This document shows, in pieces, positions 1 through 3,000 of a DNA stretch of 3,571 nt (its first letter is position 1; the number at the start of each line of letters is the position of its first letter). Location: the IMG/VR virus record IMGVR_UViG_2537561710_000021; one strand, 5' to 3'. The position numbers were made by a program. Source of the stretch: a virus (Duplodnaviria > Heunggongvirae > Uroviricota > Caudoviricetes).

Positions 1-3000
1 CTCACTACAGCTTATCCAACCATCCGGAGTTACCGGATAGTTGGTTGACGTTTCCGAGATTTCCCGAAAATTATTGGTTGACGAACCCTTATTTTCCCGA
101 AAGTTTCCAGCCTGAAGCATGGCGGCGCGGTGACACCAGATAATCCAGCCAAGCGCCATATCCCATACCATGTAATCTCTATCGCCATTTTTTGCTCTGC
201 GGCGATCTACAGATTCTCCGAAACGCTTCTCCATAAATAATTCATAGGCTGCTCGTTCATCCGATACTGCTGCCAGTGATGCCAGCGCAATCCGTGCCAG
301 CTCTTCCGCTTCTTCTGCTGGAAGCACAACGTTGCTACCCGGTCCGTATGTTTCGCGCCAATGCTGGATTGTCAGCAGTCGATCTTTGGTAATAGTGGTC
401 ATAGCTATTTCACCTTAATCTCAACATTTCGCAGCTTTAGCTCTACTGGCATGTCTGACTTTCCTGTTAATGCTAATGCGAGATTTTCTGGAGTAATGAG
501 AGCAGTTATTGTTTTCCCCATCGCCAGACGAATAATCATTCGTATTTCGCGATCGTCACATGCTCCTGGTCGAACAATTGATATTTGTCCGTTCATCTCA
601 CTCTCCTTTGATGCGAATGCCAGCGACGCGTAATGCGTGTTCTAGGTCAATCAGGTAAAGCCAACTGCCATTTTCTTTAGGTATCATGACATGTCGCTCA
701 TCTGCATTTATCGGGTGTCCATATCGAAGGTCGTAGCGAGTCGGTAATTGAACTTCCCGCGCTTCCAGTTCAGCAATACGCTTGCTCCCATCAGAGATAA
801 CGCCTTCGTAATACTCACGCTGCTCGTTGAGTTGTGATTTTGCTTCTTCCAGTCCATCCAGCAAATCAGCGATAATATCCGCTTCCCGATGACGGATGTG
901 ACGCTTAAACGCAGCAAGAGCCGCATCACAATCCCGTTCAGCATTTGGGCTGTCCGGGGTAGCCTGATACCACGCCAGCGTCGATTGATAGTTTTGTGCT
1001 GCCTCACGCAGTGCCTGATAGTCAATCTTGCCCACTGGCTGCCTCCTTTGCCGGGATTTCTAACTTTTGAGTGGTTGTATCAAATTCAAACAACTTAACC
1101 ACGTCATCAAACAGGACATAATCACCATCAGGATCTTCAGTCATATCAGCGCCACAATCCTGACCGCACGAGTCGCAACCTCCCATATCAAGCTCGTATC
1201 GCTTCAGGTTCGCGATATTTGATAAATTCAGCGCCAGTATAGCCAGATCATTAACCTCGTCTGCGATATACCCTGCACCATGTCCATACATTTCAATGCG
1301 GGATATGATTTCTTCTACACGTTGTTTTGTGATCGTCATTTTTCTCTTCACTCCGATATACAAGGATTACTACACCCCCTCTGCTGATTGCGCGAGCTGG
1401 ATCCCCTGGTTCCATGCCGTCAATTCCGAAGGCTTCGAAAAATGCATCCATTGCCTTCTGGCGTTGCTCCTGCTTACGGCGTTTATTCCATTTTTTCATG
1501 AACAACAGTGACAGCCATCGTCCGCTGCAGAACATGATGTAGAAATAACCAAGGAGCGCTAGGCCGGTGTTCAGGGCTGTATCGATCGTTATCGTGGTGT
1601 TGATGTTCACTTCACACCTCTCTGTTTGTTGATAAGTTCAATATCCTGCTGGCAACTGGCGCAAGCTCTGCATCCACGAACAGCCAGGCGTCGCCGCTCA
1701 TCTATCGGATCGCCACACTCGCAACAATGAGTAGCAGATGGGGCATTACTATCGGATTTGTATTTTTGCAGGGAGAGATTGCGCTGCAATTCTTCGATTT
1801 CAGCGGCGTTGTCGATGATATCTGCCATTTTCCTTTCCTTCAGGCATGAAAAAAGGAGCCGAAGCTCCTTTGGTTTTAGAATTCGAATTGCCTTGCCCGC
1901 AGGCTTTTCAGCATTGGTCTGGCCCGCTGAACTACGAAACTCGACTGGTCAAGCCGTGCCGCCTCTCTCAGTAGCACATCTCTGTTCTTCGTCACCATGT
2001 AGATGGTCTCAAACGCAATGTCATACAGCTTGTTCGTGTATGAGGAGTTCAGCTCTTTCATGATCGGATACAGGTGTTTGCTGAGGTCCTGGGCTTTTTC
2101 CATCCAGAGTTGCATGTAGCAGAGGAGGATGATTTCCTCGTCTGTGAATTGTTGCTGTGGTTCTGCTTGTGCCGACTGCATGTTGCGAAGTTTCTTTTCG
2201 CACTCGATGAAGTATCTGCGTATCTGTCGGCCTTTTTCGTTACGCTCTACCATCGCCGTTTCTTTGGCTGTATCGAGGGTAAGGTGGTAGTCTTTTTTCC
2301 CTCGCCCATAACCTATTTCCCGTTTCTGGGAAATAGCTATATAGTCCTGATTTTCAACGAATCCGTACTCTTCAATACGTTCTGTAATCCACGATGCAAA
2401 GCGTTTACCTACTCCAAGAAAAGTATGTAAATCACGGGCATTAACGAGAAGAGTGGTTTCGTTGGCGATAGTGCCGTTGAATACGGGGATGAGTTGACTG
2501 GTCATGATGACCTCCTTATTTGTTTAGTTTATAACCGCCAGTTAGTAGCTGGCGGTCGGGTGTCAACTGAGCCAAATAAGAAGCTCTGGGCATATTCCCC
2601 TTGCGGGTGTTGTATTACGCCTCTCCACCCGACCTTTGTACGGATGTAACTATGCCAAATTGCAGGCATAAAAAAGCCGCAAAGCTATCGGGTGCGGAGA
2701 CCGCTTATTTGTTCAGTGCGGTCAGTATGCGATAGCTCTGGAGGATTTGTCAATCAGCGGAATATTGATGAACGGGTAACGGTAAATGCCTCATCCAGAA
2801 AATTAACGCAAATTCGCATCGCAAACTTGCGTTAATTATCTGAAATATCAAGTTAAATCCCCTTAAATGTTTGGGGCACTATTGGGGCAAAATGTGGTTG
2901 TTTGGGGCATATTTGGGGCAAAAAAGAACGTATAAAGAACGGTGTAAAATTGATTTCTTCATGGTCAAAATGAGGTGTAACAGATTGAAAAATATATGCT

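Follow-up and report, generated by a model that had tools for sequence, protein, structure and literature searches.

An accessory early-gene block at the attR end of a wrbA-integrated, Stx-type prophage: a probable mosaic counterpart of the lambda orf73-ea22 region

Introduction

Bacteriophage lambda carries the early genes orf73-ea22-ea8.5-orf55 between exo and xis, and they are the described system to which we compare a block of seven small genes (ant, traR, DUF4752, phrog_3126, Ea22-like, phrog_1222, and DUF551) in a 3,571-nt stretch of DNA, here called the window, from the Caudoviricetes record IMGVR_UViG_2537561710_000021 of IMG/VR. Lambda Orf73 binds RNA polymerase and inhibits ribosomal RNA (rRNA) and ribosomal-protein promoters; in its presence the host grows more slowly and the yield of lambda rises 3- to 4-fold. 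Its DxxDxA motif is needed for activity, the D3A/D6A variant being inactive (PMC9239242). The hairpin before orf73 is a predicted terminator, t2, and the messenger RNA of lambda orf73, ea22, and ea8.5 is lower downstream of it (PMC4195576). Ea22 is a mosaic with exchangeable C-terminal domains, DUF551 being one of them, and Shiga toxin (Stx) phage variants with unrelated C-terminal domains have also been published (PMC10834534). Ea22 is described as favoring lysogeny (PMC10834534; PMC7093339).

Related clusters have been studied in Escherichia coli prophages. At the right end of Sp5 (VT2-Sakai), an in-frame deletion has been made that removes ORF86-90 (ECs1246-1250) en bloc; the mutant excised and lysogenized normally and gave several-fold more plaques, and the authors proposed a regulatory role (PMC5155283). 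The deleted set includes a traR identical to that of the window and an allele of DUF4752, and the outcome fits dispensable modulators and gives no sign of exclusion or takeover as a strong function in K-12. Overexpression of the CPS-53 cluster yfdQ-yfdR-yfdS-yfdT inhibits the initiation of chromosome replication (PMC4776307), and a similar replication effect is attributed to lambda orf73-ea22-ea8.5-orf55 by an older report, as cited in PMC9239242.

Our analysis indicates that the window region is probably a mosaic accessory early-gene block of a wrbA-integrated lambdoid Stx-type prophage, matching the orf73-ea22 part of the lambda exo-xis region. This reading is carried by the gene content and homology of the block, the hairpin before traR, the co-orientation of xis, int, ant, and traR in one contig, and the shuffling of the genes among three early-operon positions.

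Results

The window covers the right (attR) end of a lambda-like, Stx-type prophage that is integrated in wrbA of an O157-type E. coli. From base 1336 to base 3571 it matches the end of Sp5, and of many Stx phages, at 99.7%. The boundary between prophage and host lies at about 3039-3092 on the minus strand, where a wrbA 5' remnant with the att core translates to MAKVLVLYYSMYGHIETM and then diverges, and matching of phage records to the window ends at 3042-3055. Host ymdF (3464-3571, plus strand) lies beyond the att core, and the opposite prophage end in a related strain (locus L001; loci and contigs are numbered with L) reads wrbA-int-xis. All genes of the block are on the minus strand, pointing into the prophage, in the leftward order ant, traR, DUF4752, phrog_3126, Ead/Ea22-like, phrog_1222, and DUF551, the last of which is cut by the window edge; RefSeq/PGAP annotation of an identical copy has the same gene boundaries. 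This layout bears out the description, in a first-pass annotation of the sequence, of a compact same-strand accessory block of a prophage.

The traR/orf73-like gene (1607-1828, minus strand) encodes a TraR/DksA C4 zinc-finger protein of 73 residues that aligns with lambda Orf73 without gaps over all 73 of them, at 71% identity and 86% positives. It matches PF01258 (31.8 bits, cut-off 24.9) and phrog_54 (E = 5e-24), has the C4 finger CxxC-17-CxxC (C35/C38, C56/C59), and begins MADIIDNAA, which contains DxxDxA (D3, D6, A8). When NCBIfam was run over the window proteins only TraR was matched, under the cut-off: TIGR02419 (C4_traR_proteo) gave 52.6 bits against a curated cut-off of 59.7, a near miss that we treat as a matter of a strict cut-off and not as evidence against TraR/DksA membership. 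Since the protein is 71% identical to Orf73, it probably acts on RNA polymerase as Orf73 does, and the earlier remark that such cassettes often encode host-takeover functions finds support in at least this one member. Upstream, between ant and traR, lies an intrinsic-terminator-type hairpin, AAAGGAGC-UUCG-GCUCCUUU followed by a U-run (1849-1871, minus strand, recognized by its fold), which is identical in all eight aligned ant>traR loci. A counterpart, GGAGC-UACA-GGCUCC-U6, precedes orf73 in lambda and traR in the exo>traR loci.

The second tie to lambda is the Ead/Ea22-like protein (598-1035, minus strand, GTG start, 145 residues), which matches PF13935 (51.4 bits, cut-off 27) and phrog_250 and is 41% identical to residues 1-118 of lambda Ea22, that is, to its N-terminal segment and coiled coil. 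The C-terminal domain differs from that of lambda: past residue ~108 only the terminal AGIRIKGE aligns, and a PDB sequence search of the protein gave no match to the lambda-type C-terminal domain, whose fold has been solved by nuclear magnetic resonance. A Pfam match to MucB_RseB (23.6 bits vs a cut-off of 22.3) falls in the coiled coil and was disregarded as probably compositional. In the commonest context of the DUF4752 gene (DUF4752>phrog_3126>...>xis>int; L026, 5001-8199), two or three Ea22-family paralogues stand in tandem, all beginning M(S/G)(E/K)I(D/N)YQALRE and differing in their C-terminal parts, and are followed by a longer protein with a DUF551-type N-terminus, an array of one scaffold with exchangeable ends.

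We compared gene neighborhoods across 80 IMG/VR loci encoding a relative of DUF4752, in which all seven proteins and a set of context markers were located; the sample is redundant (68 distinct segments) and made up of close enterobacterial relatives. When only loci with 400 nt or more of flank on the side concerned are counted, the upstream neighbor of DUF4752 was TraR in 19, DUF4406 in 16, and another gene in 44, and the downstream neighbor was phrog_3126 in 56, ECs1248 in 7, Ea22 in 2, ECs1247 in 1, and none of the markers in 10. Ant-TraR pairs occurred in 17 loci and phrog_1222-DUF551 pairs in 12. Three contexts recur, all of them early operons: from exo to xis-int (exo>TraR>DUF4752...>xis>int), from the replication genes to Q (RepO>DUF1627>DUF4406>DUF4752>phrog_3126>Ea22>phrog_1222>DUF551>hokD>...>Q), and just past int and attP, the last seen in phage contig L060, where xis>int>Ant>TraR>DUF4752 lie on one strand. 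The genes are therefore interchangeable sub-modules (Ant-TraR, DUF4752-phrog_3126, and phrog_1222-DUF551) and not a fixed set, and the seven do not travel together. The placement of the block at a prophage end was correct as to location, given the wrbA remnant, att, and ymdF, but that position carries little information, an identical module being present in the nin region and relatives in exo-xis. Because the same genes move as sub-modules among three positions, their position at the prophage end is incidental and a fixed stoichiometry is unsupported.

The five stop-start junctions after traR are all at the coordinates that the first-pass annotation had given. On the minus strand, the traR stop and the GTG start of DUF4752 overlap by 4 nt (GTGA, 1607-1610), DUF4752 and phrog_3126 by 47 nt (1293-1339), and phrog_3126 and the Ea22-like gene by 14 nt (1022-1035); a single nucleotide separates the Ea22-like gene from phrog_1222 (TGAGATG, 594-600), and 2 nt separate phrog_1222 from DUF551 (TAGCTATG, 400-407), giving distances of -4, -47, -14, +1, and +2 nt. 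The number of genes after traR, previously put at six, is five, and the last, DUF551, leaves the window with 134 of its 195 codons present. Such tight junctions are ordinary packing of lambdoid early operons and may allow re-initiation; the exo-int stretch of lambda has six overlaps (int/xis, orf61/orf63, orf63/orf60a, orf60a/exo, exo/bet, and orf73/ea22). A motif resembling a Shine-Dalgarno sequence lies 4-11 nt upstream of six of the six starts, 4-6 nt long (7 for ant), and since each start has its own, independent initiation is possible, and coupling possible but not required.

These results bear on the idea that the block is a translationally coupled operon producing one multi-subunit machine at fixed ratios, which we find very improbable. 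It would agree with four of the five junctions after traR being counted as overlapping or at most 2 nt apart, and with the constant offset of the DUF4752/phrog_3126 overlap in 56-57 of the 80 loci. The Shine-Dalgarno-like motif at every start speaks against it, as does the swapping of partners, with TraR, DUF4406, or other genes before DUF4752 and phrog_3126, ECs1248, or Ea22 after it. Moreover, siphophages of another type carry phrog_1222 by itself, and lambda has orf73-ea22 without the remaining members. The co-expression at fixed stoichiometry that had been read from the junctions is thus not upheld, the genes being reshuffled as sub-modules among the 80 loci and every start having such a motif.

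The mosaic character of the block extends to the window itself. Bases 1459-3571 are identical to the end of Sakai Sp5, bases 1-1535 show no difference from a module in the nin region of a racR-type O157 prophage, and because these parental identities overlap at 1459-1535, the exchange lies within that 77-bp stretch of the DUF4752 gene. The whole window stands in one place in none of 5,426 complete E. coli genomes, and exact matching of the hybrid junction against IMG/VR and the GTDB representative genomes gave no hit. By exact-protein look-up the junction was found in at least six independent draft or read-based assemblies, and two Logan contigs span it unbroken at 100% identity to the window; longer contigs run from DUF551 on to hokD and then end. 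In the two complete genomes compared (FORC_044 and PA20) the parent loci are ~240-280 kb apart in opposite orientation, which makes recombination between prophages, for example by inversion, plausible. A nin-context copy (L088) has an intermediate mismatch pattern, and the window gene order occurs with diverged alleles in phage contigs L005-L008 and L077.

The hybrid could be a prophage-mediated inversion, a hybrid phage, or an assembly chimera. We consider it rather unlikely that the gene order of the window is a chimera of two O157 prophages joined during assembly across a short identical stretch. A chimera would fit the absence of the window from all of the complete genomes, the match of its halves to two different prophages so far apart and oppositely oriented, an identical stretch of only 77 bp at the junction, and the finding of that junction only in draft or short-read assemblies. 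However, at least six independent assemblies share it and two Logan contigs cross it at full identity, diverged alleles stand in the same order in the phage contigs just named, and the pattern in L088 shows that exchange in the DUF4752 gene is common. Each gene and each junction is, moreover, real in a parent prophage even if the order is chimeric.

The block had been described as led by TraR. It begins instead with ant (2505-1876), which has its own conserved promoter-like site and leader, and because ant comes first and is set apart by the terminator-type hairpin, TraR is not the leader of the transcription unit. The ant gene (1876-2505, minus strand) encodes an antirepressor of 209 residues with an AntA N-terminal domain and P22_AR_C (PF08346, E = 3.7e-27; PF10548, E = 6.1e-09; phrog_377, E = 1.8e-98). 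As in a P22-type antirepressor both domains score above gathering, with 95.2 bits (cut-off 27) and 36.3 bits (cut-off 22.4), and since the DNA has no mismatch to Sakai Sp5 from 1459 to 3571, the window Ant is ECs_1251. Upstream, the best promoter match in the window (10/12 to consensus) is a sigma-70-type promoter-like site (TTGACA, 18 nt, CATACT; 2724-2753, minus strand), both hexamers of which are kept in eight of eight aligned ant upstream regions, two divergent ones reading TTGACG...TATACT. At most ~50 nt after it, sequence reading and folding place a terminator- or attenuator-like leader hairpin, CCGCA(11 nt)UGCGG followed by C and U6 (2670-2697, minus strand). Its stem is CCAAC/GUUGG in L005 and L080, both sides being changed with pairing kept, and the U-run is invariant. 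Candidate identities of this element are a short RNA, an attenuator, and a counterpart of lambda tI/sib downstream of attP.

Between this hairpin and ant, 40 nt before the ant start, is an element of the sRNA-Xcc1 family (RF02221; 2546-2634, minus strand), a full-length covariance-model match (69.1 bits vs a gathering score of 53; model positions 1-87). Of 13 ant-bearing loci scanned, 12 (L001, L005, L008, L059, L060, L062, L065, L066, L077, L080, L081, and L084) have the same element ~40 nt ahead of each of their Ant-like genes, L006 not being reported; L080 has two copies, one for each of two ant-like genes. It was absent from both scanned exo>TraR loci, which are without ant. sRNA-Xcc1 is currently described as a trans-acting small RNA of Xanthomonas, and in published notes it is recorded ahead of ORF6N in APSE phages and ahead of symE in integron cassettes of Xanthomonas. 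We suggest that it may be a cis-acting leader of mobile-element genes, not only a trans-acting RNA, and that ant, with a conserved promoter-like site and a structured leader, is probably a unit of its own.

The other four products belong to catalogued families without demonstrated function, which agrees with the first-pass annotation in that several members had gone unrecognized. The DUF4752 protein (1293-1610, minus strand, 105 residues) matches phrog_667 and PF15944 (E = 1.3e-39, 134.5 bits, cut-off 27, residues 7-90); its last ~12 residues, overlapping the next gene, are outside the family profile, and the Sp5 allele has 94 residues. It had been called a membrane protein with a polybasic tract. 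The basic tract is there, and it follows a single, moderately hydrophobic segment (residues ~12-37; Kyte-Doolittle 19-residue maximum 1.36; then KKWNKRRKQEQRQK) that is plausible as a putative anchor. DUF4752 is found in P22-like and lambdoid phages of Escherichia, Salmonella, Klebsiella, and Erwinia, and a literature search on the family found no paper.

The phrog_3126 protein (1022-1339, minus strand, 105 residues; phrog_3126, E = 2.5e-66; no Pfam family matched) is acidic, with an isoelectric point of 4.1, as previously noted; the label Cys-rich comes down to 3 Cys in 105 residues, 2 of which vary among close homologues. Its CxxCxxxC motif (CDSCGQDC) was considered as a possible metal site; those 2 of 3 Cys are variable, although the motif is kept in distant fusions. 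Exhaustive profile searching identified the protein as a stand-alone copy of a two-part N-terminal module that elsewhere is fused ahead of the Ead_Ea22 region, DUF551, or a dATP/dGTP pyrophosphohydrolase domain, and it is 32% identical to the N-terminus of the window DUF551 protein. Its AlphaFold2 model has a predicted local distance difference test (pLDDT) score of 57, too poor for a structure search.

The phrog_1222 protein (405-596, minus strand, 63 residues; E = 1e-40) is basic, has 88 homologues across Enterobacterales, and is present in 176 phage records, among them siphophages that we take to be virulent Dhillonvirus types. Its AlphaFold2 model (pLDDT 86) is strand-strand-strand-helix-strand, and a structure search with it matched only uncharacterized phage proteins. 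By translation, the DUF551-family protein (1-402, minus strand) is represented by its first 134 of 195 codons before running off the window at base 1, so that the part matching PF04448 (E = 4.5e-21, 75.9 bits, cut-off 22; residues 128-191 of the identical full-length copy in L003) falls outside the window. A 33-nt tandem direct repeat in its gene (41-105, plus strand) encodes a repeated NFRE...ST linker that joins the N-terminal module to the DUF551 domain. Several short-read contigs stop at window base 99, within this repeat.

Taken over all members, the profile searches placed every protein in an existing Pfam or PHROG family, and of the six genes from traR on, two (traR and the Ea22-like gene) have studied relatives. 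The structure predictions (confident for phrog_1222, poor for phrog_3126) yielded no match that gave a function, and PDB sequence searches with five of the proteins found nothing significant. The block, whose unknown members had been named as the best candidates for something undescribed, is hence already catalogued: bases 1-1400 are 100% identical to annotated genes in hundreds of genomes.

We judge it unlikely that the block is an anti-defense or superinfection-exclusion island, in which DUF4752, phrog_3126, phrog_1222, and DUF551 would neutralize host defenses or exclude phages and the shared N-terminal module would deliver variable effectors to a common target. The block is variable, dispensable, and early-expressed, as is typical of anti-defense loci; a single N-terminal module has interchangeable C-terminal domains; DUF4752 may be membrane-anchored, as are many exclusion proteins; and the presence of phrog_1222 in presumably virulent siphophages points to a role not tied to lysogeny. 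Against this, none of the seven proteins matched a PADLOC defense model at E <= 0.01, searches of PDB and BFVD matched no named inhibitor of a defense system by sequence or structure, and the Sp5 deletion, tested in K-12 only, raised plaque numbers and nothing else.

Several features near the attachment site were also recorded. The window ymdF open reading frame (3464-3571) has 35 codons, the first-start frame encodes 57 residues, and the annotation in L001 is 174 nt long; K-12 YmdF has a second KGG repeat, so the window ymdF may represent a shortened allele. A 25-nt sequence with two TTGGGGCA motifs is directly repeated after a spacing of 31 nt (2868-2925, plus strand); the two copies lie ~120-170 nt inside the prophage from the att core and are candidate arm-type binding sites of the integrase. 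A palindrome at 2796-2842 was tried as an operator and rejected: where ant stands in other contexts the palindrome is not kept upstream of it, and for this reason it is more likely part of the att arm of this integrase type. In strain OkiPb01680 (NZ_AP042506.1; L001, 3314-8884) wrbA holds only a ~6.5-kb remnant, which runs from int and xis through two hypothetical genes, DUF551 genes, an Ea22-like gene with a frameshift, DUF4752, TraR, and Ant as far as ymdF. A deletion between directly repeated exo-xis-type and post-att modules of one prophage would leave such a remnant, and L008 has the same gene order.

Discussion

A mechanism can be proposed for a mosaic early-gene block of the lambda orf73-ea22 kind, which we regard as the probable identity of the window region. 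On the circular genome of this phage type the block lies just past attP, downstream of int, and for that reason it is found at attR, pointing inward, in the prophage. The genes after ant would be transcribed mainly in lytic growth, when leftward transcription under antitermination would continue across int, attP, the ant unit, and the hairpin; by analogy, read-through to traR would need the excised circular genome, because transcription must pass int and attP. The products would act separately and not as one complex, and the tight junctions would not set a functional stoichiometry. Ant would inactivate a phage repressor, TraR/Orf73 would occupy the secondary channel of RNA polymerase and turn down rRNA and ribosomal-protein promoters, and the Ea22-like protein would bias the lysis-lysogeny decision. 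DUF4752, phrog_3126, phrog_1222, and DUF551 could be further dispensable modulators, phrog_3126 being a free-standing form of the N-terminal module that its relatives carry before variable C-terminal domains (Ea22, DUF551, nucleotide pyrophosphohydrolase).

Several points weigh against this account. Read-through from the leftward early promoter across attP is an analogy with the b region of lambda, and the expression of the window genes has been read from sequence alone. The promoter scan is a consensus match only, with sites no more numerous than in shuffled sequence, and four of the seven proteins are without functional evidence. In lambda and phi24B a promoter is predicted next to the hairpin before orf73, and phi24B orf73 and ea22 are strongly expressed after H2O2 (PMC4195576); the block could therefore have a regulated promoter of its own. 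In addition, Orf73 raises lambda yield but deletion of the Sp5 block raised plaque counts, so the net role of the block would not be simply pro-lytic.

Two bolder readings are speculative, and we regard them as quite unlikely. In the first, phrog_3126 and the matching N-termini of the DUF551, Ea22, and pyrophosphohydrolase proteins would be a common adaptor docking interchangeable effectors on one host target, making the block a toolkit for host takeover or anti-defense. In the second, sRNA-Xcc1 would be a mobile cis-acting 5' leader that gates the expression of DNA-binding genes whose products could be toxic (Ant in the window, ORF6N in APSE phages, SymE in integrons).

Variable accessory regions of this kind are standard in Stx and lambdoid phages, and the block matters little as such. 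Its analysis does link the right-end cluster of Sp5/933W-type phages to the studied orf73-ea22 module of lambda, and because the clusters correspond, results on Orf73 (reprogramming of RNA polymerase) and Ea22 (bias of the lysis-lysogeny decision, relevant to Stx release) should be transferable. The recombination point in DUF4752 illustrates exchange or inversion between O157 prophages via repeated accessory modules. The four small widespread families (DUF4752, phrog_3126, phrog_1222, and DUF551) are defined targets for functional screens, and they and the association of Xcc1 with ant are the only leads that we consider worth following up.

The known systems resemble the window to different extents. 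The nin-region module of the racR/ydaS/ydaT-type O157 prophage (FORC_044; L003) is identical over window bases 1-1535 and has DUF4752, phrog_3126, Ea22-like, phrog_1222, and DUF551 with the same junctions. It differs in its location, lying in the rightward early operon with the replication genes on one side and Q on the other, and in its flanks, with DUF1627, a hypothetical gene, and DUF4406 preceding, no ant or traR, and hokD following. The right-end cluster of the 933W-type prophage Sp5 (ORF86-91, corresponding to ECs1246-ECs1251) shares identical ant, traR, and first two-thirds of DUF4752, and the attR position adjoining ymdF; past the crossover, however, Sp5 has ECs1248, ECs1247, and ECs1246, whereas the window has phrog_3126, a short Ea22-like gene, phrog_1222, and DUF551 from the nin-region module. 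In the CPS-53 cluster of E. coli K-12, a DUF551 protein, YfdS, likewise belongs to an early-type cluster of a cryptic prophage, but the likeness to the window DUF551 protein is at family level, the DnaA-binding component is YfdR, an HD-domain protein that is absent from the window, and YfdS is required only redundantly with YfdT.

The remaining known system is the lambda exo-xis region (orf73-ea22, with ea8.5-orf55). Orf73 is of equal length and has the same 4-nt GTGA overlap with the next gene as its 71% identical counterpart in the window; the Ea22-family N-terminal segment and coiled coil are shared; a hairpin with a U-run lies upstream of orf73; and in both, small dispensable early genes form a tight array. 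The window block, in contrast, lies beyond att, abutting attR, whereas that of lambda lies between exo and xis, a position at which homologous blocks do occur in other loci. Furthermore, the window has DUF4752 and phrog_3126 inserted between traR and the Ea22-like gene, the C-terminal domain of its Ea22 is unrelated to that of lambda, phrog_1222 and DUF551 replace ea8.5 and orf55, and the ant unit precedes the block. With these differences, the block is a version of the lambda orf73-ea22 region that has been annotated before and has in part been tested.

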